A stretch of DNA of 64,000 nt from an uncultured Gammaproteobacteria bacterium (GTDB taxonomy: Bacteria; Patescibacteriota; Patescibacteriia; UBA9934), in contig CAZREA010000004.1 in assembly GCA_964599455.1 (NCBI GenBank), positions 1,628 through 65,627 on the forward strand, in the 5' to 3' direction. Below are positions 20,929-59,004 of this stretch, in pieces. Every line of letters begins with the position of its first letter. The stretch's first letter is position 1. The translations under genes and the position numbers were made by a program. The notes beneath the pieces are model-generated. The model ran no database searches. It was not told where the DNA came from and saw nothing but the letters and a program-made list of their open reading frames with translations.

Positions 20929-20940
20929 AAAAAACATGAG

Positions 20941-20971
20941 CGCGGCCGATCTCCGAGAGGTCGGCCGCGCA
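20941..20971 (-). terminator. GC-rich intrinsic terminator H1 after paralog A1
   Basis: GCGCGGCCGA-loop-TCGGCCGCGC, T-run on minus strand. Confidence 0.6.
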
Positions 20972-20991
20972 CGTCGTTGATAGAGGTTGGT

Positions 20992-21576
20992 TCAGATCTC
21001 GTCGGGACGATCGATTCCGAACTTGGCCTGTACGGCCCTGACCCGTTCGGTGAGCTTGATGATCTCCTCTCGGCTGGAGAAGCCGTCGATCGTGAAGTCG
21101 ATGTCCTCTTCCAACAGGAGCTTGAGCATCCTGATCTCGCGCTCGAGCCCGTGGGCCAAGAGCTGTGCCATCGGGTCTTCCGGAGTATTCACCAGGGAGT
21201 CGAGCATGCTCTCAACCTTCTCCTTGTAGGTGAGCGGGACGGAGGACGAGCGCCTGCGTCGTCGCAAGAGTTTGCTCAAGCGGTGCAGCAGGTTCCAGGG
21301 GATGGCGTCCGCCAGGAAGAGGAGAAGCTTCAGCCTGCGGGACTTTGCGTAGGCTACTCCTATCACACCGTGGTTGACCTCGAACAGGCCGACGTCCTCG
21401 TCGTGACTGTTCCAGACGATGTAGATGCCGTCTGGCAGCGCGTCGGTGTCCGCGGTGCTGATGATGACCCCGTTGTGCTGGATATCTACGTTGAAGTTCC
21501 CGTGTTCGCCCCGCCGCCGTACGCGATAGGAGCCAGGGTTCAGGACTCTTCGGCGATCACCTGTTCTCTCGTTCAT
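20992..21576 (-). CDS. GC-rich cassette gene A1 (194 aa); shares N-terminal domain with A2 and A3
   Basis: GAGGAG SD before internal ATG; 'SYRVRRRG..LPDGIYIVW..GLFEVNHGV' N-domain; GC-rich. Confidence 0.55.
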   Translation of the reverse strand: MNERTGDRRRVLNPGSYRVRRRGEHGNFNVDIQHNGVIISTADTDALPDGIYIVWNSHDEDVGLFEVNHGVIGVAYAKSRRLKLLLFLADAIPWNLLHRLSKLLRRRRRSSSVPLTYKEKVESMLDSLVNTPEDPMAQLLAHGLEREIRMLKLLLEEDIDFTIDGFSSREEIIKLTERVRAVQAKFGIDRPDEI

Positions 21577-21757
21577 GGCACTCTCCTCAATGTACGGGTG
21601 ATTGGTGGTACTTGACGACAGTTCTTTGTCGTCACCTTTTATCTTCCTTTTTGTAAAGAAAGGCAAAAGGTGACGTTGAAGCAACGGAAGATAGTAGAAA
21701 AGACCGGAGATTTTGTAAAGGAGAGAGGAAATCAAGAAGAGGAGTCCCATAAAAACA

Positions 21758-21795
21758 GTTCGCGGTCGATCCCAAGAGGAATCGACCGCGTGAAC
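21758..21795 (-). terminator. GC-rich intrinsic terminator H2 after A2
   Basis: GTTCGCGGTCGAT-loop-ATCGACCGCGtGAAC, T-run on minus strand. Confidence 0.6.
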
Positions 21796-21807
21796 GAGAG
21801 GTTTCTT

Positions 21808-22269
21808 CTACGAAGGTGCGTGCGCAGACTCGTTGCCGAGCTCGGCCTCATGGTTGGGGGAGCGCAGAAGGGTGTCGAACGGACTTCTGGTGGACAGTGC
21901 GAGCTCCTCGAACACGCCTTGGCCCTCCTCGTCGTCCTCCACCACTCGCAGGGACGGCCGGGGTCTGCCGACCACTTGGAGTGCTGGCCCTTGGCCTTTG
22001 CCACCCTGGATGAGTCGTGGTGGGTAGCTCGACGTCGAGCGCACCTCCTCGTTGCTCTTGGCGTTGCGCGGTACACCTCCGACCACCGCGAACGTCCCGA
22101 CGACCACCTGGTCCAAATAGAGGACCTCGTAATCTCCGTCGAGAAGCGGGCGCGAGCACTGTGTGACCCGCCCACTCCTGTACTCGATCGTGACGCGAGC
22201 GATTCCTTTGCTCTCGTCTCCCCGCGGCCGTACTCTGTAGACTCCTGACTTCTCAGCTTCTGTAGTCAA
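21808..22269 (-). CDS. GC-rich cassette gene A2 (153 aa), TTG start with GGAGG SD
   Basis: 'VYRVRPRG..PLLDGDYEVLYLD..GTFAVVGGVP' N-domain shared with A1 and A3. Confidence 0.55.
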   Translation of the reverse strand: MTTEAEKSGVYRVRPRGDESKGIARVTIEYRSGRVTQCSRPLLDGDYEVLYLDQVVVGTFAVVGGVPRNAKSNEEVRSTSSYPPRLIQGGKGQGPALQVVGRPRPSLRVVEDDEEGQGVFEELALSTRSPFDTLLRSPNHEAELGNESAHAPS

Positions 22270-22387
22270 CTCAGCCTCCGCTTTGCGTTCATTGAACGCG
22301 TCAGGTGAATAGTTATCGTCTTAAGGACGGCGCATCTTACACGCAAAAGATGTTTTTTGTAAAGGTTTTTGGCTATAAAAACATAAC

Positions 22388-22417
22388 GCGGTCGACTCTC
22401 CGAAGAAAGTCGACCGC
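22388..22417 (-). terminator. GC-rich intrinsic terminator H3 after A3
   Basis: GCGGTCGAC-loop-GTCGACCGC, T-run on minus strand. Confidence 0.6.
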
Positions 22418-22501
22418 ACGAAGGGTGAGTTGCCTGCAGCGGTCAGGCGTCGCCGACCTCCTTTCTGGGGTGTAGTGAGCGATGGGGGAAGTAGTTGTTG
22501 C

Positions 22502-23221
22502 TCAGTCCGGGGTGGAGTCTTGCTCGACCGGTTCGTCCTCGATCTCGACGGTTGGCTCGGACTCCTGCGAGGCTGCCTCGCTGGTGCTCGAGGTCGGGAA
22601 CTCGGTCGCCTTGAGGGCGTCGAGTCGTCCCAGGAGCGTGTCGAGGTCCTCCGGGCTGCTGAAGCCGGCGGTTTTGAGCACGTCCTGATAGCCCTCGCTC
22701 TGTTTGCGGATCTCTACGGCCAACTCGCGGAACGGAATCATCATCGCCTCGAGCCCCTCCATCGTCCGCGACCAGTCCTGTACCATCTCCTCGATGAGTC
22801 TCGGCTCCAGCTTTTGTATCTTGCCGCAGTGGGGGCAGGACTCGCCTTTCGCCGCCGCCGCGAGCATCTCCAGGGGCATGAGCTTGCGCTCTGCCCACTG
22901 CTTCCAGGAGGATGGTTCACGCTTACCGCCTGCGCTGAAGCGCAGGAACACGACAGGACCACCTGCCAACAGCAGGTCCAAGTCGAGCTCGGCCCTTCTG
23001 TACAGCCGCCTTGCCTGACCGGGCACACCGTTCTGCACGGTGAAGCGGCCGATCTGCGTTCCCTCGTAGAAGATATCGTAGTCCCCATCCGTGAGGGGGG
23101 ACTCGCCAGTGGAGAAGATCTCGGCGGTCTGGCTGTCGATCTCGACCGGAATGATAGCCTCCTGGCCCTGCAGACCGACCATGTAAGCGGAACGGGTGGG
23201 TTGTTGTTGGGGTTCGGACAA
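22502..23221 (-). CDS. GC-rich cassette gene A3 (~239 aa; start chosen at TTG with GAGAGG SD; track start 23311)
   Basis: 'AYMVGLQG..PLTDGDYDIFYEG..GRFTVQNGVP' N-domain; C-terminal 'CPHCG' and acidic tail. Confidence 0.5.
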   Translation of the reverse strand: MSEPQQQPTRSAYMVGLQGQEAIIPVEIDSQTAEIFSTGESPLTDGDYDIFYEGTQIGRFTVQNGVPGQARRLYRRAELDLDLLLAGGPVVFLRFSAGGKREPSSWKQWAERKLMPLEMLAAAAKGESCPHCGKIQKLEPRLIEEMVQDWSRTMEGLEAMMIPFRELAVEIRKQSEGYQDVLKTAGFSSPEDLDTLLGRLDALKATEFPTSSTSEAASQESEPTVEIEDEPVEQDSTPD

Positions 23222-23278
23222 GGTTGCCTCTCTCAGCCCGTGTGGGCGTTTGGTGATTGGTGCGTGGACAGCTTTTTC

Positions 23279-23331
23279 TTCGCCGTCACTTTCTGCTTTT
23301 GAAGCATTCAAGTTCAGAAAGTGACGGCGAA
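23279..23331. promoter_or_regulatory. perfect 17-bp inverted repeat (TTCGCCGTCACTTTCTG / CAGAAAGTGACGGCGAA, 19-nt spacer)
   Basis: Sits about 60 nt upstream of A3 and between divergent genes; operator-like or hairpin. Confidence 0.4.
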
Positions 23332-23429
23332 AAACTGTTCTTTTTAGCGAAAAATCTCCTTTTTGTCAAACTCCGTCCCAAAACATACAGCAAAAATCAG
23401 CCCATATCGTACAATGAACAAAGAAAACT

Positions 23430-24269
23430 ATGAAAGACATCTCTTCCCATCTCCTGTTGTGTACGACCAACGACCCCGAATCTCTGCTTATTACCAAGAT
23501 TGCTCGGGCGCTTTTTCTCCCGATTCTTTCTTCTGCTCAACAACACGGTGCCCGTCTGAGCCAAGAATCTCATCTTTTTGATCGCGTTCGAGAAATGACA
23601 TCAGAAGCGAAAACGATCGTCATTGTAGAAATTCCTGGTCCCGATGAAGAAGGCATACTGAGAAAGGCGGGATATGAAGTGGTGATTATCGATCATCACA
23701 CCTACCCCAATCTCAATCGCATGCAGCCGCAATCGTCACTTGAACAATTTTTGCATTATTTTGAAATTTCCGACGAGAATTTGCTTGGTGTTGGATTTGA
23801 ACCGTATCTGGTAAAAGGTGTGGGTTGCATTGATCGCGGTTTTTTGTGGGAATTACAAAAAGATGGCTATAGCGATGAAGAGGCGCGACAGATTCGAGAA
23901 TATTACGTTGCACTTGAACGAGAAGTTGATCCGCGGTTTACCGAAGTCATGCAGATTGCGAAGGAGGCGTGGGAGCACAGAGAGTTACACGAAGGTATTT
24001 GGATTATTCGTTCATCGCATCAACAGGTGCATATTCGCAATGCAATTTCATTTTTGTTTGCCGATGCCTTTCCTCACGAAGCACCACCGGCGATTATCGT
24101 TGAGGGTGACGGCAAAATCACATTACAAGATCATGATCGTGCCAAGGAATTCTTTACTGCTTACGGCGGTTATCTTTTTGGAATGGAAACATGTTGGGGC
24201 ATAACGCCAGAGATGGGTGTCGTCCCCACCGTGGACGCTCTTTTGGCCAGACTCAGCGACATACGCTAG
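23430..24269 (+). CDS. hypothetical protein (279 aa)
   Basis: ORF only; 'VVIIDHHT' is weakly DHH-like. Confidence 0.45.
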   Translation: MKDISSHLLLCTTNDPESLLITKIARALFLPILSSAQQHGARLSQESHLFDRVREMTSEAKTIVIVEIPGPDEEGILRKAGYEVVIIDHHTYPNLNRMQPQSSLEQFLHYFEISDENLLGVGFEPYLVKGVGCIDRGFLWELQKDGYSDEEARQIREYYVALEREVDPRFTEVMQIAKEAWEHRELHEGIWIIRSSHQQVHIRNAISFLFADAFPHEAPPAIIVEGDGKITLQDHDRAKEFFTAYGGYLFGMETCWGITPEMGVVPTVDALLARLSDIR

Positions 24270-28404: not shown

Positions 28405-28478
28405 AGGGATAATATTTTAAAGCTAGAATAGGAAGAAGTATATCGAAGTAAAGGATCTATTCACAGTGTAAAAAGATT

Positions 28479-28509
28479 GACGCCCGGCCTCACGAGGAGG
28501 TCGGGCGTC
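28479..28509 (-). terminator. GC-rich intrinsic terminator H4
   Basis: GACGCCCGGCCtcacgaggaGGTCGGGCGTC, T-run on minus strand; near-identical stem to H5. Confidence 0.6.
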
Positions 28510-28515
28510 ACGGTT

Positions 28516-29781
28516 TTACGCCTTCACTTCCGCCGAGTTGCGGATGGCGGTGGAGCTGATGTCCCACCGCCCTTTGATCTCGACGAACAGATCTTCGTAG
28601 CCTTCCGGGATACCGACGTCCCGCAGCGTTTCGAACCGGTTGCCGTTGGCCCGGCCCGCCACGTAGAACTTCGTTCCGAGCTCCCGGAATCGCTGACAGA
28701 TGTCTGCCGGCGTCAGGTCCTCGGTGCAGAAGTTCGGGTCGAGGAGGCGTCGCAGGGTGTCGACCCCCACCAGGAAGCCGACACTGGGGAAGAGAGCTGC
28801 TTTCTTGAGATAGATGCCCGCTTCCTTCAGCACGATCACGGCCCTACGACCGAAGAAGGTGCTGACTCGTCTGGCCATCTCGTCATCTGGCACCATGCCT
28901 TTGACGGGGTGGTCGGCGTTGAGCTGGCACACGACCTCCATGCCGGTCTGTTCCTCGCAGGCTCGGGCCATGGCTGCGTGGCCGCGATGCCAGTCATTGA
29001 ACGATCCGGCAAAGAGGATGTGTTTTTTGCCGTCGATGTGGTCGAGTCCGTAGCGGCTGCCATCCGGCCAGTAGACCGGCTCGCGGTAGAGCGTGCTCGG
29101 TTCGATTTTCGGTTCGATGATCCTCGGCCTGAGTACACAGCCGCCTTCGGTTCCCGTGATGTTCCCCTCCTCGATGAGGTCATCGTCCAGAGGGATCTGC
29201 GGCAGTCCAGCGGCGAACAGCAGGAGGTTGAGGCCGATGAGATCGACCTGGTCACCCTGTCGGTTGCGGACTTCTGCTCGCTGGCGAAAGGCCTCATCTT
29301 CATCTATCGGCTGGTTATGTAGCTTGTGGGTCTTGAAGAAGCCCACGTGCACGACCAGGAAGAAGTCTGGCAGGCGCAGGGCCACCCAGACCTCGTCGCT
29401 GCCCTTACGATCTTCACGTTTGCCATCCTTCTCGCGCTCGGTGGCCACACTGGCGGTTCCACCGAGACCAGCGGGCGTGCCCGTTCTGCTTTCGGCCTTC
29501 ATGATCTCGATTGATGTCTCGAAGGCTTGCTGAGCCATGGCCATTGCGGTCTCGCGAGCCACGGACTTGGGGACGCGGCGACTCAGGAGGTCGCCGAGGG
29601 CGTGACCGGCGTAAGGCAGGCCGCCGTTCAGGATGAGCCCGCTGCATCCGGGCACCTGCCACAATATCTTCTGCAGCCCTGCGCCCGCGCCGGTCATGTC
29701 GAGGGTCAGGCGCAGCGGGATATTGGTCTTGAGGAGGGCGAGCACGGCCTTGAAGGTGGGGGTTTTGGTGATATGGGGCAC
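28516..29781 (-). CDS. fusion protein: unknown Gly-rich N-terminal domain plus C-terminal NMN/NaMN adenylyltransferase (NadD/NMNAT family); GTG start with AGGAG SD
   Basis: 'ILFAGSFNDWHRGH' (HxGH nucleotidyltransferase) and C-terminal 'ISSTAIRN'; N-domain 'DMTGAGAGL..LNGGLPYAGHALG' unassigned; GC-rich. Confidence 0.55.
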   Translation of the reverse strand: MPHITKTPTFKAVLALLKTNIPLRLTLDMTGAGAGLQKILWQVPGCSGLILNGGLPYAGHALGDLLSRRVPKSVARETAMAMAQQAFETSIEIMKAESRTGTPAGLGGTASVATEREKDGKREDRKGSDEVWVALRLPDFFLVVHVGFFKTHKLHNQPIDEDEAFRQRAEVRNRQGDQVDLIGLNLLLFAAGLPQIPLDDDLIEEGNITGTEGGCVLRPRIIEPKIEPSTLYREPVYWPDGSRYGLDHIDGKKHILFAGSFNDWHRGHAAMARACEEQTGMEVVCQLNADHPVKGMVPDDEMARRVSTFFGRRAVIVLKEAGIYLKKAALFPSVGFLVGVDTLRRLLDPNFCTEDLTPADICQRFRELGTKFYVAGRANGNRFETLRDVGIPEGYEDLFVEIKGRWDISSTAIRNSAEVKA

Positions 29782-29930
29782 GGGAACTCCTGTTGTGATG
29801 TGAGTGTGATATGAGTTATGAACGAAGACTTTTCGAAAAATGCTCGCCGAAGCGAGGAAAGAAGGTAACAAAAAATTGACCAAAAGTCAATTTTCCTCAG
29901 TAATATTGGCAATAAGATTTGTACAAAAGA

Positions 29931-30022
29931 AAACAGCGCACCCTCAGAGTCGGCAGGAGCGTTTCACCCCGGGGGTGTTGGCTGTTTTCCTGTCGTACTC
30001 GACCCCGCAAGTCGGGGAGGGT
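29931..30022 (-). terminator. large GC-rich multi-hairpin 3' element after 30034..30459
   Basis: Outer 10-bp stem GCGCACCCTC/GAGGGTGCGC enclosing CACCCCGGGGGTG and CCCCGcaagtCGGGG; T-run on minus strand. Confidence 0.45.
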
Positions 30023-30033
30023 GCGCACGTTTG

Positions 30034-30459
30034 TTAATAGAATTTTGGCATGTTGGCGATGAGTGGGAGGCGACCCATCTCCTCTTTGTTCAGTGTCACG
30101 CGCCCGTCGTAACCGTTCATCCAGAAGCGGAAGGAGAGTCCTTGATGGTGTAGTGGCTCGCCCACAATCTCGGTGAACAGATGCCCATATTGCATGAGTG
30201 CGTACACCAGTGCTGCTTCGAGATTGCCGCCGAAGCTGAACAGATTAATGTTCAAGAATCGCAGCAGATCATCTCGTGAAATTCTTTGCGGAAATGGAAT
30301 CTGTGCATCCCCGCAAGTCAGCACGAGTGCGAAGTCGTCGGACTTCATGTCGAGAGGTTCCGCGAATCGAATCCCGACTGTTCCGTGAATGATGAGATTC
30401 CGGTCTTGTTGGACGTTGAGTTTTGGCCTGAGGCCCTTTTTTACGACTCTGTCTTCCAT
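30034..30459 (-). CDS. GC-cassette hypothetical protein (141 aa; internal ATG with AGGAG SD)
   Basis: ORF with SD; no recognisable domain. Confidence 0.45.
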   Translation of the reverse strand: MEDRVVKKGLRPKLNVQQDRNLIIHGTVGIRFAEPLDMKSDDFALVLTCGDAQIPFPQRISRDDLLRFLNINLFSFGGNLEAALVYALMQYGHLFTEIVGEPLHHQGLSFRFWMNGYDGRVTLNKEEMGRLPLIANMPKFY

Positions 30460-30568
30460 GACATCTCCTGTTGTTCGAAGGCGGAAGGTGTTCGAAAGCA
30501 ACCGTGAAGTATGGCATAAAATCTCTTTTTTGTCCAAAAAGTTTCAAAAGATATAAGAAAAAAAAGTT

Positions 30569-30600
30569 AACGCCCGGCCTCTTTGCAGAAGTCGGGCGTT
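30569..30600 (-). terminator. GC-rich intrinsic terminator H5
   Basis: AACGCCCGGCCtctttgcagaaGTCGGGCGTT, T-run on minus strand. Confidence 0.6.
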
Positions 30601-30636
30601 ACGGTTGTGTGAAGTGGGATGTGGCGATGATGAAGC

Positions 30637-31173
30637 TTACACCTTCACGCGACGGGGAGCGAGGATGTATCCGTCGCTGCCGTCCCGTGTAATGTCCGCC
30701 CCTTCGCGGACTTGCTCTGGTGCGATGCGCAGGGGTATTGGAGGGCGGCCGGCTGCGTGCAGGAGAAGACTGCTCGCCACGATGATCCGCGTCTCGCTGC
30801 GAGGATTGCGGAATGCGAGATCGACCTCTGCGTCGATGACGAAGTCGACACAGACGACGAGCACATCTTTCTCGCCAGCAAACAGAGTGATGAAGGCCGT
30901 GTCGCCCTCCGAAAGACCGATGCCGATCGCTGCGCCCGGTTGCTCGCGAGCGTGAATATACCTTCGTACTCGCTCCCAAGCAGCACCTGCCTGATCGATG
31001 GCCTCCGCCTCGCTGGAGTTTCGCGATTTGTTGGAGATGAGGGATCCAAGCAGGAGTCCTGCTTGAGAAAAGGTGTGTCCAACAAGGGGCGCGGTTGCGC
31101 CTCCCTCGATCCCGATCACGAGGTCGGGTCGTTGCCTGGCTAAACCTCGCAGGGTTCTGTGCGGTGTGGTCAC
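30637..31173 (-). CDS. GC-cassette hypothetical protein (178 aa; GTG start with GAGGAGGA SD)
   Basis: 'LVIGIEGGATAPLVGHTF..AIGIGLSEGD' motifs, unassigned; GC-rich. Confidence 0.45.
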   Translation of the reverse strand: MTTPHRTLRGLARQRPDLVIGIEGGATAPLVGHTFSQAGLLLGSLISNKSRNSSEAEAIDQAGAAWERVRRYIHAREQPGAAIGIGLSEGDTAFITLFAGEKDVLVVCVDFVIDAEVDLAFRNPRSETRIIVASSLLLHAAGRPPIPLRIAPEQVREGADITRDGSDGYILAPRRVKV

Positions 31174-31325
31174 GTGGTCCTCCTCGTCGATTGATGTGGG
31201 ATGTCGTCAGCAGTCGACGCACAAGACTATCCATTTTTCTTTTTCTTGTCCATTTGCTTGTGTGATGAAGAAACAAGAGGGAGTTTGTGCACATATTGTC
31301 CACAGGTTCGTGGTAAAATAGTGAC

Positions 31326-38696: not shown

Positions 38697-38957
38697 AGGG
38701 GAGGAACAGATGGGACGGATTGTAGACGGATTTAGGGGATATGGAAAGGGTGCTGAATTGAATCTAAAATTATTGACTTTCCTGCCGTTTTTGTTACCTT
38801 AGTCTATCGTTCAGAGAACATTGTTCGTGTTGAACGTAGCGTTTTGGACCTAAAAAGATGGATCTAAAACGCCGTGCTCAACCAATGGCCTGCATCATTC
38901 CGGTATCTATCGGAAGAAATGCCTGCCCACGGCTTTCCAAAAAGGAGGCTCGTCGCC

Positions 38958-39860
38958 ATGTCGACACGCCTTGCTGATTTGCCTTATGGAGTCGTCGATC
39001 AGCTGCATCGCCAGCTCGCCAGCAACCTGACCGCCGAGGAGGGACGGAAGCTTCATGATCGCCCCGAGCTCTGGAAGGTCATGGTCGAAGCCCTGCGCAG
39101 GCAGATAGGGCCTAAACTTGTTCACGGTCGGTTCACCCCGCTCGCGGACAAGATCGCGATGGTGAAGACGTGGCCCGGCATCAACCCGGCCGACGTCGAC
39201 GCCGCGTTCGCCACGGCGATGGAGAACGGGACGATCGCCGGCTACGAGGCCGAGGTCGGGAAGAACCCGTTCCTCGACATCGTCGTCACGGTCTACCGCG
39301 AGTCCATCCCCGCCACCGTCGTGTACGCGCGCGAGCGCATGCGTGAGGTCTGGGGTGACAAATACAGCGAGTGGGAAGCAGCCTACGCGCAGGACGTCGA
39401 TGACGACCGCGTGAAGGCCATCCCGGGCGCGAAGCAGTTCACTCCCAACCGGATCGTCATCGAGGTTGTCGACTTCGGGGCGAACTGGAACCTGAAGGAC
39501 GGCGTCGTGCTTGAGGAGGTTCAGAAGTCCCAGGCTGCTCAGCTCGCGAGTTTTGCCGTGATCTACAACGCCGTGCAGAGCCCCAAGTGGCTCTGGCAGA
39601 TGGACGGTAAGAAGGTACCGTATGCCCTCGTGGCTGCGCTTCTGCTCAACGTGCCGAACCACAGAAGAGATAGGGAGACAGAGGAGATGGAGCGTGCCAT
39701 GATGTATGCGCTCATCATCGACAGGCCACTGCCTTACGAGGCGTGGCGTTACTCACCGAGCGTCTTGCGCGACGGTGGCGAGGCGAGGCTGAGCGGCGAC
39801 TACGTCGGGTGCCGTTTCCACAACTGCGCCGTGCCTGTCCTCCGGGAGTACAAGCGCTAG
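38958..39860 (+). CDS. GC-cassette hypothetical protein (300 aa; internal ATG with AGGAGG SD)
   Basis: Visibly GC-rich; no recognisable domain; two hairpins downstream (GTCCGCgaaGCGGAC, GATACGT..ACGTATC). Confidence 0.5.
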   Translation: MSTRLADLPYGVVDQLHRQLASNLTAEEGRKLHDRPELWKVMVEALRRQIGPKLVHGRFTPLADKIAMVKTWPGINPADVDAAFATAMENGTIAGYEAEVGKNPFLDIVVTVYRESIPATVVYARERMREVWGDKYSEWEAAYAQDVDDDRVKAIPGAKQFTPNRIVIEVVDFGANWNLKDGVVLEEVQKSQAAQLASFAVIYNAVQSPKWLWQMDGKKVPYALVAALLLNVPNHRRDRETEEMERAMMYALIIDRPLPYEAWRYSPSVLRDGGEARLSGDYVGCRFHNCAVPVLREYKR

Positions 39861-42873: not shown

Positions 42874-43368
42874 GCTTGGCGCGCCGGACGGCTATGCGTG
42901 GTTTACCACGTAAGGAAAGTCCGAACACCCTTTGTGCAGCAATGCACAATGAGCAAAGGCGTTGTTAACGACAACCAGGAAGAGATCGCAAGATCAGAGC
43001 CTAGGGAAAGTCTCATCTCGACGCAAGAACGGATGAGGTCAAAATCGGCGGGAAACGGCCGACAATGACGCAACAGAGACATTCAAACCTCCTTCGATTT
43101 GTTCATGGAGGCAAAAGGTGAAACGTGATGGGGACGCAAGTTTCCCATCTCCCTGCATGGTGACATGCAGGGTGGCAAACCCGCCTTGGTGCAAGAGCAA
43201 GATTGGTAGCTCGCTTGCCCCCAACGGAGCTCCGACCCACTTTGCGCAAGCTAGGTGGGGAGGAGCGAAGTGGGGCTTAGGTCACTGGCAACAGTGATCA
43301 CAGAGAAATGGCCGTCTCCCCCGAGCGTAAGCGAGGGGCCAGACAAAATTCGGCTTACAGGCGCGTCC
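42874..43368 (+). ncRNA. rnpB: RNase P RNA
   Basis: 'GGAAAGTCCGAACAC' (CR-I) and 'ACAAAATTCGGCTTACAG' (CR-IV/V); promoter and terminator flank it. Confidence 0.75.
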
Positions 43369-43409
43369 AAACAAAAACACACCTTCGTCAGCGAAGGTGT
43401 GTTTTTGTT
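43369..43409. terminator. bidirectional intrinsic terminator after rnpB
   Basis: AAACAAAAACACACCTTCGtcagCGAAGGTGTGTTTTTGTT. Confidence 0.7.
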
Positions 43410-43434: not shown

Positions 43435-43860
43435 TGACGCGATCGGAATAAAAAAGAGCTCAAAAGAAGATCTCTCGAGGGCAAAAAGCAAAGGTTATAC
43501 AAAACGTGCATTTACAAAAAGGATGTCCTCGGCAAATAATCGGTATATGTTCCACCGTTTTCGCAAGATGAGCGGTGGGACATGGATGGCGTGCAAAGGT
43601 CCGTGCTGGGCGGATAATGCCTACGTTCTCAAATGGGTGAGGGCCTGGGTGTATTCAAGCCTTTGTACGCCATCCTCTCTTTTTGTCTGGGCGGGACCTG
43701 GAATGATGCATTTCGCGATAGCCTTCAGAAGGTCCTCGCTGAATGGTTTTCGCGGCGATGCGCTTGTCGAGTGGTTCGGCAAGCGGTCCGGTGTTGTTCC
43801 AGGTCCCGTTTTTATCCCACGCGCGCTCGTGGGATTTTCCTTAAAACATGAACCCCCGCC

Positions 43861-43890
43861 ACGACTCGGTCGGGCGGGGGTCACGAATGG
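43861..43890 (-). terminator. GC-rich terminator-like hairpin H6
   Basis: CCCCCGCCacgactcggtcGGGCGGGGG. Confidence 0.5.
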
Positions 43891-43896
43891 TGCTGG

Positions 43897-44514
43897 CTAC
43901 TTCACTGCTTCGGCCGCTGCGGCGTCGGCAGGAGGAGAAGCGGGGATGTCGCCGTAGTAGACATCGAGCTCACCGATCGGCGCAGGGCTTTCGGGGGCGA
44001 TGAAGAGAGAGCCCTTCTGCTTGAAGCGCGGAACTCCCTCGTCCTCCTTATTCCTCCTGGGGATGACATTGCCCGGCTTTCTGCGGGGGAGTCTGACTTT
44101 CGTCCAGCCCCTCTGTGTGATTGCCTCCACTCGCTTCGGCCTCTCCAGCTCGAGGTCCGTGTAGTGGCGAGAGAATTCGCCGGGCGACCACGACTGCATC
44201 GCTCGACACCGCTGAAGCAGCGTCTCGGCGTGCTCGATCTGTGTCTTGATGTCCTGAGGATCTTCTGCCGTACGGACTCCGTTCCGCAGAGCCCGCATGC
44301 GACGAATCACCAATGTGAACGCATGGTGCGTTCCGTTGATCTTCATTCCGTCACGAATGCGTTCTGCGGTAGCGGCAAATTGCGAGATGGTCCGAGTAGC
44401 TGCGTTTTTACGACCTCGATCCTTTTCCTCTTTGGCAGGCTGAGGGGGATGATGTTTGCGGGGGTGCCAGGTGGACGTGTGCAATGAAACGACCCTCTTG
44501 TCTCTGCCCGACAT
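43897..44514 (-). CDS. GC-cassette hypothetical protein (205 aa; start uncertain, no SD found)
   Basis: GC-rich ORF with a downstream hairpin; basic, no domain recognised. Confidence 0.4.
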   Translation of the reverse strand: MSGRDKRVVSLHTSTWHPRKHHPPQPAKEEKDRGRKNAATRTISQFAATAERIRDGMKINGTHHAFTLVIRRMRALRNGVRTAEDPQDIKTQIEHAETLLQRCRAMQSWSPGEFSRHYTDLELERPKRVEAITQRGWTKVRLPRRKPGNVIPRRNKEDEGVPRFKQKGSLFIAPESPAPIGELDVYYGDIPASPPADAAAAEAVK

Positions 44515-44595
44515 GGGAAGAGTTCATCTAAGTTGCCGCAAAAGAAAGAAAAAAGCAAATCACGGATGTGTTTTAAAAAAAGAACACCACTCGCA

Positions 44596-44639
44596 CGCAG
44601 CAGAGACGAGGCCGCAACAAGCGGTGATGTTCTGCTGCG
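44596..44639 (-). terminator. GC-rich hairpin H7 after 44674..45096
   Basis: CGCAGCAGA..TCTGCTGCG with inner CCGCaacaaGCGG. Confidence 0.5.
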
Positions 44640-44673
44640 CCACAGGTGGCGAAAGGTTTGTAGCTCGTTGGAG

Positions 44674-45096
44674 CTACTTGTTGTCGATGAAGCGCAGGGA
44701 CGTCTGCAGATCGCAGGCGTTCTTGCTTCTCTCGGCGGCTTCTTTGCTGTCCTGAGTATTGGTCTCCCAGAGTACGTAGGTATTTCCTTTGGCTCCGCAG
44801 GCCTCGGTATGGCCTACGAAGAGCGTAACGCCGGTTGCGCCCTGGACGACTCGCACCTTTTGACTGACGTCATTCAGGGAGCGTGCCGTCTTTTCTCCGA
44901 AGATGATTGCGAGCACTTCCGAGGTCGTCTTGCTGGCGACCTGAAAATTCACGCCGTGTGGTGTGGCGTAGATTTCGCCACCATACCCCGGAATCTCCAC
45001 GTAGACGCGATCAGTCTGCGAGAGCTTGCTCGGCTTGGGCAGCTCCTCGGCCTTGGCAATCGCGAAAGACAGGAGAATGAAGAACAAACTACACAT
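44674..45096 (-). CDS. GC-cassette secreted hypothetical protein (~140 aa; ATG with AGGTG SD)
   Basis: Signal peptide 'MCSLFFILLSFAIAKA'; GC-rich. Confidence 0.45.
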   Translation of the reverse strand: MCSLFFILLSFAIAKAEELPKPSKLSQTDRVYVEIPGYGGEIYATPHGVNFQVASKTTSEVLAIIFGEKTARSLNDVSQKVRVVQGATGVTLFVGHTEACGAKGNTYVLWETNTQDSKEAAERSKNACDLQTSLRFIDNK

Positions 45097-45159
45097 GTTC
45101 ACCTCATTTTGATTGAGTGAAATTTAGGATACGAAGCAATCAATCAGTATAATAAAAAT

Positions 45160-45400
45160 GCTGCTTCGTCAACGGAAGTGGATGATTTTTGCAAAAAGAG
45201 AAAAAAGAGGTAAACAGTACGCGTTTAGCGCTTGCCTTGGCGGGCGTTAAGCTGGACGGAGTCTGGAGAGGTCCAATACCGTTTCGGCGGGATTCTTGTT
45301 GGATTTTTCTGGCGGACAGGGAATTTCTTCCTGTTCGTTTTAACACGGACTCCGTCCTTCATCTTTCTCGGGCCACTCTTCGGAGCGGCCCTTCTTATTT
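45160..45400 (+). ncRNA. candidate small structured RNA (~240 nt), class unknown
   Basis: TTAGGA-N18-TATAAT upstream; 8-bp stem ACGGAGTC..GACTCCGT encloses ~95 nt; ends GGGCCACTCttcgGAGCGGCCC plus T-run. Confidence 0.25.
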
Positions 45401-49045: not shown

Positions 49046-49170
49046 CAGAACCTTTTAAAATGATTCAGGCCTAGGAGGCTACACGACGCAGGCCGAGACG
49101 TACTGCAGACGTACGTTGAGGCCGAGTCGAGTGTCGCCGACAACGGCATGGAGCATTTTAAAAGGTTCTG
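49046..49170. repeat. R2 repeat copy a, enclosed by a perfect 17-bp inverted repeat, abutting tRNA-Leu 3' end
   Basis: CAGAACCTTTTAAAATG / CATTTTAAAAGGTTCTG flank a core ~85% identical to R2b with ACGTAC-N7-GTACGT. Confidence 0.65.
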
Positions 49171-51576: not shown

Positions 51577-52344
51577 ATGGAACAGGATGCTACACCTATT
51601 GAGCGCGAAGTTTCATCCCATGAAGTGGCTCATCGCCCTTCTTGGACGAAAATTTTGGCAACGATCGTGTTGTGCGGTGTCATTGCGCTTGTGCTTTCTT
51701 TTTCTTGGAAGGTGTTTGCCTACTATCAAGAGATTAAAAATGGCACGTTAGATCCTAACCTCGGCACCTTTTCCTCAACAACCATCAGTGCTGATCGCTT
51801 ACAGCTACTTGCACAAAGTGCTCCGGGGAGCGGTATGTTGGCAACTGCAGACGATCCTTCGCTCGGGATAGCTGACGCCGCGGTCACTATCGTGGCTTTT
51901 GCAGATTTTGGTTGTCCCTATTCGCAAGAAGAAAGCTATATTTTGCGCGCAATCACCAAAGCCTTTCCTGAAGATGTGCGAGTAATCTACCGAGATTTTC
52001 CTTTAATTGAACTCCATCCAGGCGCTGACCTGGCGGCACAAGCTGCTGAGTGTGCATCTGAGCAGGGGAAATTTGGGGAGATGTATGATGAGCTGTATCG
52101 TAATCCTCCCGAGTTTACGGCGGAAGATCTTGAAGCAACGGCGCTGTCGTTGGGCTTAGATGGGAATGTATACAAAAAGTGCATGGCGTCCGGGTATTAT
52201 CAGGAGGAAGTGGCGCAAGACATTGCTGATGGTGTGGCTGCGGGCGTAACCGGTACCCCAACCTTGTTTATTAATGGAATTAAAGTTGAAGGTGCAATGC
52301 CGTATGGAGTTCTTACCCAAGTTGTTACTGCCATGGTTCCGTAA
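51577..52344 (+). CDS. membrane-anchored DsbA-family thioredoxin-fold protein with CPYS (CxxS) active site
   Basis: TM helix; 'FADFGCPYSQ' at the DsbA active-site position with Ser replacing the second Cys. Confidence 0.6.
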   Translation: MEQDATPIEREVSSHEVAHRPSWTKILATIVLCGVIALVLSFSWKVFAYYQEIKNGTLDPNLGTFSSTTISADRLQLLAQSAPGSGMLATADDPSLGIADAAVTIVAFADFGCPYSQEESYILRAITKAFPEDVRVIYRDFPLIELHPGADLAAQAAECASEQGKFGEMYDELYRNPPEFTAEDLEATALSLGLDGNVYKKCMASGYYQEEVAQDIADGVAAGVTGTPTLFINGIKVEGAMPYGVLTQVVTAMVP

Positions 52345-53803
52345 AGCGGCGCTCATTGGCGTTATTTTTCTTTTTGCATTGCCAGGAAAAGCGCAGGCCG
52401 CAGATACGTGTACCTGTTTTTGTGGTAATAACGAATTGGGTGCCGTGGAGTCGGTAACCTATGACTCGGCGGCTGATTGCGCGAAGAGTTGTCGGGATGC
52501 GGGAACATTGTATGTCGGATGTTTTACGAATGAAACCTATTTTCCAGAAAATAGCGACTTGTGTTGGACTGAGATGGAATGCGAAAGTCATCCAATTGAA
52601 GTTGCCGGTAAAACGTATTATGGAAGCTGGACTTCCCAGTCTCCGTACTGTAGTAAAAAACCGATAACCGGTGCGGAGATGGGGTATTGTTATGGTCCGT
52701 TGAGACCCATTACCCTTTCGGTTCCCATTTTTGGCACAACGGAAATTGGTGATTTAGGGCAGTACGTCAATCTTCTGTACACGTATGCGATACCGATCGC
52801 TGCGCTGATCGCCGTTCTGTTGTTTATGATTGCGGGGTTTCAATACATGACCGCAGGTGGTGATAAGAAAGGGGTGACGCAGGCAAAAGAGCGCATGAAA
52901 AATACGGTCATTGGTCTCATCTTACTTTTATCAGTTTACGCCATCGCTAATTTCCTCGATCCTCGCTTGGTACGGTTTACCTCTCTGCGCCCACCATTGA
53001 TTAAAGAAGCGGTGCTTATTGATGCGCAAACAACCTGCGAAGCCATGCAGGAGTATGGATATACCATTCAACCTACCTCGGGTTCTTGTGGTAATAAGGG
53101 AACAATTGTCGATGATGATGGCGTGCAGGGGAATATTGCCAATCCACCCGATATGGGAGACACCTGTACATTTAGTGCATGTTCGGAAAGCGGGAAAGCC
53201 TGTGCATTGAATTCGGATGGAAGCGGTGGCGTTTGTGTGGCGTGTAATCAAATCTCCTCTAACTCGGTTACGGTTTCTGTCACGCCATCTACCGCGACAT
53301 GCAAGGGTATCGCAAAGACTGCTGATACTAATGATCGTAATGATCTGCACGTCTACTCTTGTTACTATGATGATGATTTGTTAGGAAGTGACGAGTGTGT
53401 ACAGCTCTATACTTCCGGTGAAAATTATATAAATTGCGCCGAACTGTATGGGTATATGGAAACAACGGCGTGGGGTGAAGATGGGTGTGATGCCTATGAA
53501 AAATTGAACGCAGATTCGTATGGCCTAAACACCGACGGAACACTGTCGGCGATGTTTATGGCGGGCAGCGCCGATGAGATTGGTGATTTTGAAGAAGTAT
53601 TCCAGAGACTATGCGAGGATGATCCGTGCAAAATGGCGGAAAAAAGTGGGCAGAACAGTTGTGTGTTTCAAGTGACTGACAGTTTAACGAATAGTGCATT
53701 ATCTTCGCTTCCCGGCGTTACGGGAATGTTTGCCTCTTATGTCATTGATCAGAATTTAAACTGTATCGGACAAAAGACACTTGATGCATCAGGATCTGAG
53801 TAA
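52304..53803 (+). CDS. secreted cysteine-rich protein (~28 Cys) with central pair of TM helices (VirB2/TrbC-pilin-like hairpin)
   Basis: Signal peptide; two Cys-rich extracytoplasmic domains; 'IAALIAVLLFMIAGFQYMTAGGDKKG..VIGLILLLSVYAIANFL'. Confidence 0.5.
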   Translation: MEFLPKLLLPWFRKAALIGVIFLFALPGKAQAADTCTCFCGNNELGAVESVTYDSAADCAKSCRDAGTLYVGCFTNETYFPENSDLCWTEMECESHPIEVAGKTYYGSWTSQSPYCSKKPITGAEMGYCYGPLRPITLSVPIFGTTEIGDLGQYVNLLYTYAIPIAALIAVLLFMIAGFQYMTAGGDKKGVTQAKERMKNTVIGLILLLSVYAIANFLDPRLVRFTSLRPPLIKEAVLIDAQTTCEAMQEYGYTIQPTSGSCGNKGTIVDDDGVQGNIANPPDMGDTCTFSACSESGKACALNSDGSGGVCVACNQISSNSVTVSVTPSTATCKGIAKTADTNDRNDLHVYSCYYDDDLLGSDECVQLYTSGENYINCAELYGYMETTAWGEDGCDAYEKLNADSYGLNTDGTLSAMFMAGSADEIGDFEEVFQRLCEDDPCKMAEKSGQNSCVFQVTDSLTNSALSSLPGVTGMFASYVIDQNLNCIGQKTLDASGSE

Positions 53804-55814: not shown

Positions 55815-55890
55815 CTAGGAGGCAATACGACGCAGGTCGAGACGTACTACAGCCGTACGTTGAAACCGAGTTCAGTATTGCCGACACCGC
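55815..55890. repeat. R2 repeat copy b, ~30 nt upstream of tRNA-Ile(UAU)
   Basis: 'CTAGGAGGCaaTACGACGCAGGtCGAGACGTACtacagccGTACGTTGA..' ~85% identical to R2a. Confidence 0.6.
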
Positions 55891-55920: not shown

Positions 55921-55997
55921 GGGCCTGTAGCTCAGTTGGTTAGAGCTCCGAGCTTATACCTCGGTGGTCCCTGGTTCGAATCCAGGCAGGCCTACCA
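55921..55997 (+). tRNA. tRNA-Ile (anticodon UAU), CCA encoded
   Basis: Anticodon stem CCGAG/CTCGG with loop ctTATac; Ile-type D-arm TAGCTCAGTTGGTTAGAGC; T-arm GGTTCGAATCC. Confidence 0.7.
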
Positions 55998-56000
55998 TTG

Positions 56001-56178
56001 AAAGCCTTTTTATTCGGGCTATTTTCTGCCTTCATCACTGCGGTCAACTCACCGTACAGAAGAAGTACGGCTTTCTCCTTCGCTAAAGCTTCGGGGGAAT
56101 GACCCCGTAGCTTACAGCGGAGGGTCATCGTTGATCCTCGTTCTTCAGGACAGGAATTATCTCCAAATAAAAAGGTTT
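56001..56178. repeat. R1 hairpin repeat, copy C (longer variant), abutting tRNA-Ile 3' end
   Basis: Same terminal inverted repeats and 'CATCACTGCGGTCAACTCACCGTA' core plus ~55-nt internal insertion. Confidence 0.65.
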
Positions 56179-56179
56179 T

Positions 56180-56362: not shown

Positions 56363-56365
56363 ACT

Positions 56366-56740: not shown

Positions 56741-56741
56741 C

Positions 56742-56768
56742 AAAAACTCCTCATAATGAGGAGTTTTT
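56742..56768. terminator. bidirectional intrinsic terminator
   Basis: AAAAACTCCTCAtaaTGAGGAGTTTTT. Confidence 0.7.
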
Positions 56769-56769
56769 G

Positions 56770-56846
56770 TGGTGGGCGGTACAAGATTCGAACTTGTGAC
56801 CTTCACAATGTCAATGTGACGCTCTAACCAACTGAGCTAACCGCCC
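56770..56846 (-). tRNA. tRNA-Val (anticodon GAC), CCA encoded
   Basis: Anticodon loop ttGACat; T-arm ACAAGTTCGAATCTTGT; acceptor GGGCGGT/ACCGCCC. Confidence 0.85.
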
Positions 56847-56902
56847 TTTGACTACTGACAAAGCGGAATAACTATAGGGATATTTATCAAATACGTCAAC
56901 GT

Positions 56903-58204
56903 TTATTCTCTTTGCAAAACGAGTCGATGGGCAAATTGCAATGCATCCTCATGGGATGAAAGCGCGCCTTTTAGTTGTTCATTACGCACATGCTGTAAAA
57001 GCAGACGCAAGGCTGGTCCTGGGGCAATGCCAAGAGGGAGGAGATCGCGTCCACGTAACAGTTTCGGCATCAGCGCCTGTTTCGGCAGACGATCACGAAC
57101 AATGGCTGCACGTTCGATATTGCGTAGCAATTGTCGTTGCGGCGAGATGAGGGATGTTGCGTAGGTCAGGGCCAGTGCTTGTGCACCGATATCGCCACCT
57201 ACGATTTTTTCTGCCTGGGCAAGCGACCACAGATCAGGATTTTCTTCACTTATGCGTCGAGTTTTTTGCAATATGTCTTGCGTTGCCTGTTCATCAAACG
57301 ACAAATAAGGATGCGATGCTCCGGCCGCATGAAAACGACGCGCATGGGTTTGGAACGCTCCTTCTCCTTCAGGATGCGCGGCAAAAAGTCCGGCAGCAGT
57401 AAGCGATGCACTCAACGGCGCGTTGGCATAGCGTTGGCGAATGTAGTCATCATGCAGTGCGGAAAGAATTTGTTCTTCTGGATGACCATTTTGCACGTGC
57501 GGCAAAAGTACCGGAAGTAACCCTGCCTCATCAAAAAGTTTCCAGGCATTTTTTGGGTGATGATGGAGTGCGAGAAGTTTTTCAGTAAAAAGCTGATGCC
57601 GCGGTACCTTGTAGACGGCGGTTCCATGCTCTTCATGTGTCACTCGCGCATGAAGATGTTTGGCGTAGGTTTGTATCGCTGTCCACGTTTCCGAATCAAT
57701 AGTGAGATGAAACTGTATACTTAATCGTATTGCACGCAGTAATTGCAAGGGGCGCAAACGAAATTGCGTTGCGGGAGATTCTATGGTGCGGAGCGTTCCT
57801 TTTTGCAAGGCAGAGATGCCATCAAAAGGATCGTGTAACTGGCCGTTACGTACCGAATAGCCCATGGCATTCATGGTGAAGTCAGCTTTTGTCAGTGCAT
57901 CATGCAAGGGATCGGGAATAGAAGATTCTTTTAAAGCAAGAAGCGTAATTTCGAACATCGTGGGAGCAGGATGTTGTGCGAGCCACGCATTTGTACGAAG
58001 AACATTCGGCGTCAGAATAAAAACGTGCACATGTGCGGGCAATCGACCTAAGAGTGCATCACGCACAGTTCCGCCAAATAAAACGATATCCGATGCGGGA
58101 AACGCCTGGAGATAGCGAAACATCCAGGAGCACGCAGGCGTATCGGCAACAAATGCGCCAACGCGTTGTGCAGGAGGAAAAGGTGATCGCCAAGCAAGGG
58201 ACAT
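56903..58204 (-). CDS. cca: CCA-adding enzyme / poly(A) polymerase family tRNA nucleotidyltransferase (internal start)
   Basis: 'FGGTVRDALLG' class II nucleotidyltransferase motif; the track ORF's N-terminal extension is antisense to the GC island. Confidence 0.7.
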   Translation of the reverse strand: MSLAWRSPFPPAQRVGAFVADTPACSWMFRYLQAFPASDIVLFGGTVRDALLGRLPAHVHVFILTPNVLRTNAWLAQHPAPTMFEITLLALKESSIPDPLHDALTKADFTMNAMGYSVRNGQLHDPFDGISALQKGTLRTIESPATQFRLRPLQLLRAIRLSIQFHLTIDSETWTAIQTYAKHLHARVTHEEHGTAVYKVPRHQLFTEKLLALHHHPKNAWKLFDEAGLLPVLLPHVQNGHPEEQILSALHDDYIRQRYANAPLSASLTAAGLFAAHPEGEGAFQTHARRFHAAGASHPYLSFDEQATQDILQKTRRISEENPDLWSLAQAEKIVGGDIGAQALALTYATSLISPQRQLLRNIERAAIVRDRLPKQALMPKLLRGRDLLPLGIAPGPALRLLLQHVRNEQLKGALSSHEDALQFAHRLVLQRE

Positions 58205-58316
58205 GACAAGATTATAGCAGAACCATCCTTTTATTGACGTTTGCTCGATAGTTTGTTGAACTATCCCCTCGGACTTCCTCGAGCCTTTCGGTGTTGGCCA
58301 ACCGAACGGAGGCGCC

Positions 58317-58805
58317 ATGCGCACCCTTACTCTCATCGCGTTCTTCCTCCTTGCCTCCCGCGCATTTGCGCAGGAGTCCACTTTGCCCGCTCCAACCAGC
58401 GTCGTCATCATGGCGCAAGAGTCGAATGATCGTGTGCGGAATGCGGTGGTGTCGAATGCCATCGTCGTCAACTGGACCACCTCGCCGCCCACGATCTCGA
58501 TCTTCGTCGAGTCCGTGGACACCGGGAGACACATCCAGACGCTCAGCCTGTCCGGCGAACGCAACGGCGCGTTCTGGATCTTCCGCGTCCCCGTCCAAGC
58601 CAGCGTGTCCTCCCCGTTCGTCGAGGTCATCCTCGGGTCCGGGAACGTGTTCGCGGTGACCATCGACGAGGCGGGCGAACGTCAGTTGGTCGCCGTCAAC
58701 CAGGTAGCCGAGGTCTACTTCCCGTTCAACGCGAACGGGGATGAGTACTGCGTTTCCCTGAGCAAGCCGATCGCCTGCATGGGGAGCAATTGCCCGCCGA
58801 TCTGA
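58317..58805 (+). CDS. GC-cassette secreted hypothetical protein (162 aa, GGAGG SD)
   Basis: Signal peptide 'MRTLTLIAFFLLASRAFA'; GC-rich. Confidence 0.5.
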   Translation: MRTLTLIAFFLLASRAFAQESTLPAPTSVVIMAQESNDRVRNAVVSNAIVVNWTTSPPTISIFVESVDTGRHIQTLSLSGERNGAFWIFRVPVQASVSSPFVEVILGSGNVFAVTIDEAGERQLVAVNQVAEVYFPFNANGDEYCVSLSKPIACMGSNCPPI

Positions 58806-58828
58806 GCCACGTCACCACCTGACCCAGC

Positions 58829-58876
58829 AAAACATCACCCCCGTGCGGTGATCCTGCTGCGCGCGGGTGGTGTTTT
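58829..58876 (+). terminator. GC-rich hairpin H8 after 58317..58805
   Basis: AAAACATCACCCCCG..CGCGGGTGGTGTTTT. Confidence 0.45.
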
Positions 58877-59004
58877 GTTTAGGGGATAAAGGTAGAATAT
58901 ATTCTTGTTTACCGCGTATTTTTCTCCCTTCATCCTCACTTTCATAAAATTAAATAATACCTCTAATATCAGCCAAATATTCACCCTTTCATCAAGAGAA
59001 ATAC

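Follow-up and report, generated by a model that had tools for sequence, protein, structure and literature searches.

The stretch of DNA considered here (the window) comprises 64,000 nucleotides of contig CAZREA010000004.1, in which a core of lower-GC genes is interrupted by six segments richer in G+C (GC). The host genome is, judging from sequence comparison, that of a Candidatus Uhrbacteria-like Patescibacterium, a small bacterium of symbiont type; a search of 185,579 species representatives found the closest ileS genes, at 72% identity, in Candidatus Uhrbacteria/Patescibacteria metagenome-assembled genomes (MAGs). An earlier note had placed at least six self-contained gene cassettes between positions 20930 and 58880 and had regarded them as the likely site of a novel accessory, defence or symbiosis-related system. 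The six segments are present in this interval and hold ten genes (C1a to C6), and a seventh, milder unit lies outside it (3082-4200). The segments probably represent ten independent monocistronic cassettes, or eleven with the milder one, which belong to the flexible genome of this bacterium and were acquired horizontally.

The compositional contrast described earlier was confirmed by computation. The whole window has a GC content of 48.5%, and the sequence outside the six named segments 46.9%, against 58.9, 62.4, 55.5, 61.1, 56.1 and 60.8% for the segments in order. The ten cassette genes were delimited using shared motifs, the positions of Shine-Dalgarno (SD) sequences, the frame with the highest GC content at third codon positions (GC3), and public-record gene calls. 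In the correct frames their GC3 is 0.61-0.85 (z = +2.9 to +6.9 relative to the core), compared with 0.430 +/- 0.061 and a maximum of 0.57 for the 46 core genes of the window, and their first and second codon positions (GC1 and GC2) exceed the core by merely ~0.05 and ~0.04, respectively. Codon usage deviates in the same way: the cassettes favour GAG, AAG, GAC, CAG, ATC and TTC, the reverse of the core, which favours GAA, AAA, GAT and CAA, and both A and T are depleted at cassette third positions. Host-style codon optimisation for high expression was rejected as a cause, given that cassette codons are opposite to those of the core and that the one ribosomal protein gene of the window, encoding L19 (53839-54252), has a GC3 of 0.46 and no SD.

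The cassettes also differ from the core in their translation signals. An AGGAG, GGAGG or GAGG motif lies 5-12 nt before the start codon in eight of the ten genes (C1a, C1b, C2, C3a, C3b, C4, C5b and C6) and in only about 3 of 47 core genes, with any start within the first 40 codons permitted; the earlier note had likewise seen no obvious SD at most core genes nearby. Its observation of GC-rich hairpin terminators after the stop codon extends to all ten cassettes, whose 3' hairpins have folding energies between -22 and -63 kcal/mol (z from -2.7 to -5.6) and a T-run after each, and the antisense frames of the segments are open, as it had stated. Promoter-like boxes lie upstream of the units, and eight of the ten genes are on the minus strand. 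The units, with their coding sequences (CDS), are as follows.

C1a, 20933-21719, minus strand: CDS 20992-21576, 194 aa, GC3 0.82; SD AGGAG; promoter-like TTTACA-17-TACTAT at 21719-21691; terminator hairpin 20933-20975 followed by T8.
C1b, 21761-22363, minus strand: CDS 21808-22269, 153 aa, GC3 0.73; SD GGAGG and TTG start; promoter-like TTTACA-18-TAAGAT at 22363-22334; 13-bp terminator hairpin 21761-21790.
C1c, 22386-23372, minus strand: CDS 22502-23311 or start at 23182, 269 or 226 aa, GC3 0.77; TTGACA-type box with GACAAAAAGGAGATTTT motif at 23351-23367; 15-bp terminator hairpin 22386-22419.
C2, 28478-29890, minus strand: CDS 28516-29781, 421 aa, GC3 0.79; SD AGGAG and GTG start; promoter-like TTGACT-17-TACCTT at 29890-29862; small leader hairpin 29843-29856; terminator 28478-28510.
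C3b, 29931-30536, minus strand: CDS 30034-30459, 141 aa, GC3 0.61; SD AGGAG; promoter-like TGGACA-17-CATACT at 30536-30508, including GACAAAAAAGAGATTTT; multi-hairpin 3' structure of ~100 nt at 29931-30032 with a T-run.
C3a, 30568-31190, minus strand: CDS 30637-31173, 178 aa, GC3 0.65; SD GGAGG and GTG start; terminator 30568-30601.
C4, 38773-40016, plus strand: CDS 38958-39860, 300 aa, GC3 0.83; SD GGAGG; promoter-like TTGACT-16-TACCTT at 38773-38800; 3' element and terminator 39861-40016.
C5a, 43847-44514, minus strand: CDS 43897-44514, 205 aa (195 aa by the NCBI call), GC3 0.68; no clear SD; terminator hairpin 43847-43885.
C5b, 44585-45160, minus strand: CDS 44674-45096, 140 aa, GC3 0.72; SD GAGGTG; AT-rich upstream region; terminator 44585-44651.
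C6, 58235-58879, plus strand: CDS 58317-58805, 162 aa, GC3 0.85; SD GGAGG; TTGACG box near 58235; terminator 58826-58879, similar to that of C5b.
Seventh, milder unit, 3082-4275, minus strand: CDS 3082-4200 with ATG at 4200, 372 aa, GC3 0.60; SD GGAGG; TTGACG box; GC hairpin in the leader.

Every cassette is thus an autonomous transcription unit. The separate promoters and terminators, together with the unrelated products described below, indicate that the units are independent of one another. Some signals are nonetheless held in common: C2 and C4 share the promoter motif TTGACT..TGTTACCTT, C1c and C3b share GACAAAAARGAGATTTT, and the terminator flanks of C3a and C2 are 86-89% identical. The codon usage of the seventh unit is midway between core and cassettes, and this unit may be an older acquisition; its protein matched no Pfam family.

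Near-perfect inverted repeats were also observed at C1c (23276-23334, 28-nt arms) and in the C1a leader (21630-21675, 21-nt arms). Both contain GTCAC...GTGAC and may serve as operators or leader stem-loops. The idea that core genes are leaderless was considered and rejected, as a TANNNT box 4-11 nt before the start was present in 14 of 46 genes compared with 9 of 46 in a control window, a difference that is suggestive for approximately eight genes and not significant.

Insertion sites

The cassettes are located beside ileS, femAB, GT4, a Bac_transf/WbaP-like gene, rnpB, a trpS/tyrS-type gene and cca. The neighbours named earlier, namely ileS, GT4 with the WbaP-like gene, rnpB (42876-43373) and the gene for the CCA-adding enzyme, were correct. 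Two of the five insertion sites were compared across species using the window and 26 related loci (L003 and so on).

At the first site, ileS is followed by a conserved gene encoding 279 aa (23430-24269 in the window), and this order is kept in ~22 relatives. The distance separating the two genes varies between 9 bp in L006 and 6.8 kb in L027, and in six relatives (L006, L007, L009, L010, L018 and L023) it measures only 9-215 bp, which is too short for a gene. Elsewhere the gap holds open reading frames (ORFs) with a GC3 of 0.70-0.95 (L003, L012, L014, L017 and L027), and these showed no homology to C1a-c or among themselves. The second site is the gap between femAB and GT4, whose length lies between 150 bp in L019 and 5.2 kb in L007. 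The window has at this site a low-GC gene of 145 aa together with C2, C3b and C3a; in L012 the gap contains a thymidine kinase gene (GC3 0.75), and in L008 an ORF with a GC3 of 0.77 and an SD. In the close relative L006 (7652-11604) the site is occupied by a complete diversity-generating retroelement (DGR), comprising a 696-aa target, a variable region (VR; 9588-9722), a template repeat (TR; 10060-10191), Avd and a reverse transcriptase (RT).

Both comparable sites therefore have conserved flanks, variable and species-specific content, and empty forms in some relatives, which are the features of horizontally acquired islets. They are lineage-wide cargo bays, or insertion hot spots. Since the gaps of relatives are empty or hold different cargo, much of which is likewise GC3-rich with an SD, the cassettes are variable accessory elements in such hot spots, and the suggestion that they are variably present was borne out, the same genes not being found at the same sites for either of the two. 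Furthermore, the association of base composition with SD extends to the relatives: across the window and the 26 loci, a 5-mer SD precedes 11 of 19 GC3-rich ORFs and 39 of 487 ordinary ORFs, and SD is rare in the relatives generally, including genomes of 61% and 66% GC. The GC3-rich cargo of the relatives includes a thymidine kinase, a Macro-like protein and a Csx3-domain gene. In line with the earlier failure to find an integrase or transposase, none was detected by a Pfam scan of the cassette proteins together with 30 core ORFs, which covered the core except for a few small ORFs, or in the Pfam annotations of the ileS neighbourhood.

Products of the cassettes

The best-documented product is that of C4, whose relatives form 44 protein clusters among 5.8 billion proteins. 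The named members of this family come from Patescibacteria/Uhrbacteria, save one bin labelled Lentisphaerae. In locus L032, the last 122 nt of the C4 homolog are repeated 395 nt downstream as a VR/TR pair; the two copies differ at 14 of 27 sites that are adenine in the TR and at 0 of 89 other sites, and genes for Avd and the RT follow directly. This is a textbook DGR. Loci L039 and L042 are arranged in the same manner, with Avd and RT genes adjoining the homolog, and their VR/TR differences fall at 15 of 30 adenine sites versus 6 of 86 others (L039) and at 11 of 30 versus 1 of 86 (L042).

The region of C4 equivalent to the VR lies at ~39740-39850 and is immediately preceded by a 25-aa insertion. 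When compared with the heterologous TRs, it is changed at 17-18 of 30 adenine sites versus 21 of 86 others (p ~1e-3). The predicted fold of C4 is C-type-lectin-like and agrees with the C-type-lectin/formylglycine-generating-enzyme (FGE) type. The 64-kb window has no second copy of the C4 3' end that could be a TR, a tblastn search using RT and Avd of L032 found neither gene in it, and the 90% cluster of the window protein contains no sequence variants. On the basis of homology and predicted fold, C4 is concluded to be a DGR variable protein, an orphan as far as the window extends and devoid of the cis elements of an active DGR target; it could still be the remote target of a DGR elsewhere in the genome.

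The C4 gene is flanked by two structured elements. Its leader (38829-38957) consists of a 23-bp hairpin (38829-38882), a twice-repeated GGUCAGCC box around a small hairpin, and then AGGAGG. Leaders of this type also occur in L037 (500-629), L038 (1066-1193), L031 (7905-8000) and L039 (5730-5852), and eight pairs of the 23-bp hairpin show compensatory change across the five sequences. One predicted pairing covers the SD, and the leader may be a cis-regulatory RNA, for example riboswitch-like or SD-masking. Directly after the stop codon lies a 3' element of ~150 nt (39861-40016), with four hairpins and an invariant GTCCGC-GAA-GCGGAC. It also occurs in L030, L037, L038, L039, L040 and L042, with compensatory change at 10 of 30 pairs across seven sequences, and may act both in termination and in recognition of the DGR target. 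Neither the 5' leader nor the 3' element matched an Rfam family.

C2 contradicts the claim that none of the cassette products is recognisable as a housekeeping protein, given that it resembles enzymes of nicotinamide adenine dinucleotide (NAD) salvage. Its C-terminal domain matches Pfam CTP_transf_like (PF01467) at 22.7 bits against a cut-off of 21. A profile of 21 C2 homologs matched the nicotinic acid mononucleotide (NaMN) adenylyltransferase 1kam in its C-terminal part (E 2e-6) and the CinA/PncC structures 2a9s (E 3e-4) and 4ct8 in its N-terminal part. PF02464 is present in one homolog, and both activities are named in one JGI annotation. C2 thus combines a CinA/PncC-type domain with a nucleotidyltransferase domain that contains the H-x-G-H motif region (GSFNDWHRGH, of the G-x-F-x-P-x-H-x-G-H type), and scores below the NCBIfam equivalog cut-offs throughout. 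It is probably an NAD-salvage fusion with one part like nicotinamide mononucleotide (NMN) deamidase and the other like NaMN/NMN adenylyltransferase, from which its activity is inferred. The fusion family is rare (21 clusters among the 5.8 billion proteins), and the best homolog is 33% identical. Its relative in L034 is compositionally native, with a GC3 of 0.35 among neighbours of 0.24-0.43 in a 39% GC genome. A PDB sequence search with C2 alone was discarded, as it returned only spurious matches. C3a is weakly similar to residues 172-223 of C2, in the N-terminal, CinA/PncC-like half, and C3b had no match in any database searched.

C1a, C1b and C1c share an N-terminal beta-domain of 70 aa and have no homolog besides themselves among the 5.8 billion proteins. 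In a HMMER search of 1.84 billion representatives, the domain touched only the immunoglobulin (Ig)-like repeats (Filamin, Big_13) of giant proteins. The AlphaFold2 model of C1 is of low quality and uninformative (pLDDT 66), and Foldseek returned nothing with E < 0.25. The three proteins appear to be paralogs specific to the lineage, each combining a single Ig-like beta-domain with a helical tail. C5a is a basic protein with no match in any database searched, and the N-termini of C5b and C6, as read from the sequence, are hydrophobic and resemble signal peptides.

Several other features of the window were recorded. C6 is divergent from cca (likely cca start 58204), and beside it lies a region of 666 nt without an ORF (59035-59700, plus strand), which opens with a promoter-like TTGACG...TATAAA box and ends in a hairpin with a T-run. 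The region folds to -296 kcal/mol (z = -11.8 versus shuffles), has no Rfam match at E <= 1 and no copy in the fetched loci, which makes it a candidate for a large structured non-coding RNA. At 42876-43373 (plus strand), the match to RNase P RNA spans 498 nt against a model of 367 positions and scores 111 bits against a gathering score of 100, which suggests sizeable lineage-specific insertions. Two repeat families of 50-100 nt, 69-92% identical, are found near tRNA genes, one at 1947-2051, 6435-6540 and 56008-56059 and the second at 49071-49145 and 55815-55889; they lie downstream of tRNA-Ala and tRNA-Ile and beside tRNA-Leu and tRNA-Ile. The tRNA-Ile gene at 55921-55997 (plus strand) encodes a UAU anticodon in the genome; the usual route is a CAU anticodon modified by TilS. 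A gene for a PD-(D/E)XK nuclease (PF13366; 46428-46925, minus strand) sits between the trpS/tyrS-type gene and RNase J and is an AT-rich outlier (GC 33.5%, GC3 0.29), the opposite of the cassettes. A 509-aa protein with a type IV secretion system pilin domain (PF18895) is encoded amid core genes at 52274-53803 (plus strand).

Origin and significance of the cassettes

Horizontal acquisition, the reading preferred here with moderate confidence, would account for the cassettes as follows. Each is a module in which a sigma-70-like promoter and a 5' leader with a canonical SD precede an ORF whose codon usage is that of an organism of ~60-65% GC, and a strong intrinsic terminator closes the unit. 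Such modules would originate in a GC-richer (~60-65% GC), SD-using gene pool and enter by horizontal uptake. They would become fixed in permissive intergenic sites through recombination in conserved flanking genes. Insertion without an integrase is suggested because the searches found neither an integrase nor repeats at the flanks nor genes of mobile elements.

Several observations weigh against this account. Only two of the five insertion sites were compared with relatives, and no target-site duplication, recombinase gene, or flanking repeat of at least 14 nt bounding any cassette was found. No donor was identified, C1a-c being without homologs and the best C2 homolog only 33% identical. High-GC Uhrbacteria were considered as donors and rejected, as L011 (61% GC) and L016 (66% GC) have neither SD (13 and 14 long ORFs, respectively) nor cassette homologs. 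The C4 family poses a further difficulty. Its members on GC islands share just 45-72% identity with the protein of the window and lie in differing genomic contexts, and no GC-matched home genome for the family was found among 17 loci. In 13 of these 17 loci the family genes have a GC of 0.60-0.66 and a GC3 of 0.75-0.92, against flanks of 0.36-0.59, and in L032 the Avd and RT genes are AT-rich (GC 0.40-0.43) beside the GC-rich target. Because the family is GC-rich in so many loci whatever the GC of the flanks, simple recent transfer is insufficient as an explanation, and the pattern is awkward for such transfer with later amelioration; GC-richness looks like a persistent trait of this family.

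It is accordingly possible, though less probable than acquisition from a GC-rich pool, that GC-richness is actively maintained in a class of accessory genes of the candidate phyla radiation (CPR) that circulates within Patescibacteria as complete modules. The means would be selection (on mRNA stability or structure, or on SD-led expression) or GC-biased gene conversion in frequently recombining genes. The composition of the C4 family despite its divergence and its flanks is consistent with this, as are its near-confinement to Patescibacteria/Uhrbacteria, the contrast between the L032 target and its AT-rich partners, and the SD preceding GC3-rich ORFs across the 26 related loci. In addition, the promoter-proximal leader, SD and 3' element of C4 accompany the gene from locus to locus, with base-pair changes that compensate each other. 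However, the native composition of C2 relatives in other CPR genomes (L034) indicates that the property is not general, and the most distant C4 members (L046 and L048), which alone have ordinary GC, are not GC-rich either. The slight rise in GC1 and GC2, too, is what would be expected of proteins that evolved in a GC-rich background, and no mechanism is known for holding a GC3 above 0.8 in a 47% GC genome. Loss of adenine through the DGR reverse transcriptase was rejected as the source of GC-richness, given that T is depleted as strongly as A at third positions in every cassette.

An origin of the cassettes as morons or other remnants of decayed Uhrbacteria phages or plasmids is unlikely. The anatomy of the units (own promoter, one gene, own terminator and deviant composition) is that of morons, and thymidine kinase, the Macro-like protein and the NAD-salvage enzyme are typical phage auxiliary functions. 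However, scans of IMG/VR with C1c, C2, C3b, the C4 family, C5a and C6 gave no relative, and PHROGs gave one weak match of 38 residues only. Core genes flank the cassettes directly, with no capsid, terminase, integrase or repressor gene beside any of them.

That the cassettes together constitute one novel defence or symbiosis system is very improbable. Their common compositional class, the promoter motifs shared by C2/C4 and C1c/C3b, the related terminators of C2/C3a and C5b/C6, and the Csx3-domain gene among the cargo of relatives speak for such a system. However, PADLOC had no match for any of the ten proteins and PHROGs essentially none. Moreover, the units are unrelated and monocistronic, lie scattered among five sites along 38 kb, and have separate promoters and terminators, and two of the products are of known kinds with ordinary explanations. 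The same sites hold wholly different contents between species, and the families do not co-occur in the 26 related loci. Of the accessory system proposed in the earlier note, the accessory, foreign-looking, self-contained and variable nature of the cassettes stands, and the single system does not: the cassettes are a mixed bag of unrelated accessory genes.

Least credible is an artefact of assembly or binning, in which foreign GC-rich fragments were spliced into an Uhrbacteria contig; although the metagenome origin, sharp compositional boundaries and several genes without homologs might suggest one, the junctions are identical in two independent Logan assemblies (two sequencing runs) and the 74-kb NCBI contig, and so the islands are not assembly artefacts, and the boundaries fall exactly at promoters and terminators, never within genes, with like islands in many independently assembled relatives.

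CPR bacteria/Patescibacteria have tiny genomes, and their gain of new functions is poorly understood. The window presents two gene dialects side by side, namely a core with 43% GC3 and no SD and modules with 61-85% GC3, SD and strong terminators, so that GC3 combined with SD provides a simple sequence signature for the flexible genome of these organisms. Islets of horizontally transferred genes are ordinary. What is not ordinary is the clean split in a CPR lineage between an SD-less core and SD-led, GC-rich modules, the recurrence of modules at conserved sites, and a DGR-target family with conserved RNA elements whose GC-richness persists across many hosts. No paper on any of these three, GC-rich, SD-led islands in CPR genomes included, was found in the literature. 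It may be proposed, tentatively, that the lineage carries a circulating pool of autonomous modules whose coding sequence is kept GC-rich and whose translation relies on a canonical SD, in genomes that use neither for their own genes; as part of the same tentative proposal, the best-documented module would be a DGR variable-protein gene accompanied in its movement by a structured 5' leader not described before and by a structured 3' element.

The anti-SD motif has been reported missing from approximately half of Parcubacteria 16S rRNAs (PMC9297842), and the window contains no 16S gene. If the host ribosome lacked the anti-SD, the cassette genes would need a special expression route or would be expressed outside the cell that carries them. 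The C4 family would be an example of a DGR target gene whose persistence and movement do not require its retroelement. If its composition is actively maintained rather than recently imported, an unusual gene-specific control of base composition in bacteria would be implied.

Comparison with known systems

The cassettes share features with several known systems. In comparison with known anti-phage defence, no PADLOC-DB family matched any of the ten proteins at E <= 0.05. C2 alone resembles the CinA/PncC NMN deamidases and the NadD/NadM-type adenylyltransferases, having an N-terminal CinA-like and a C-terminal cytidylyltransferase-like domain; it differs from them as a rare fusion of <=33% identity that falls short of the NCBIfam equivalog thresholds.

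Integron gene cassettes likewise consist of a single ORF followed by an imperfect inverted repeat, vary between strains and are often of unknown function. However, the cassettes of the window have their own promoters, and their perfect GC stems with T-runs are terminators, not attC sites. They are scattered in both orientations without an intI/attI array, and the ORFs that were scanned yielded no integrase.

Phage morons are independent promoter-gene-terminator units of deviant base composition inserted between phage genes. The cassettes correspond to them in having one gene each, their own promoter and factor-independent terminator, deviant composition, and a position between genes that are adjacent in relatives. 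In contrast to morons, they lie in a bacterial chromosome between housekeeping genes and not in a prophage, with no phage genes near, and they are also unlike their host in translation signal (SD versus none).

C4 alone resembles DGR variable proteins such as Mtd of Bordetella phage and TvpA of Treponema denticola (PDB 2y3c) in its predicted C-type-lectin-like fold. Members of its family have a C-terminal VR that differs from the TR only at adenines, beside Avd and RT genes, and the GC-rich hairpins after the VR may be a further likeness. C4 itself differs in the lack of TR, Avd and RT within 64 kb and in the 25-aa insertion before its VR-equivalent, and its family differs in the conserved structured 5' leader, which belongs to no Rfam family.

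The last likeness is to integrase-free hot spots of horizontal gene transfer, or genomic islets. These similarly have conserved core flanks, species-specific cargo, empty sites and no integrase. The cargo described here differs from theirs in being single-gene and uniformly GC-rich in a lower-GC lineage, and at least one cargo family keeps its composition in many hosts.

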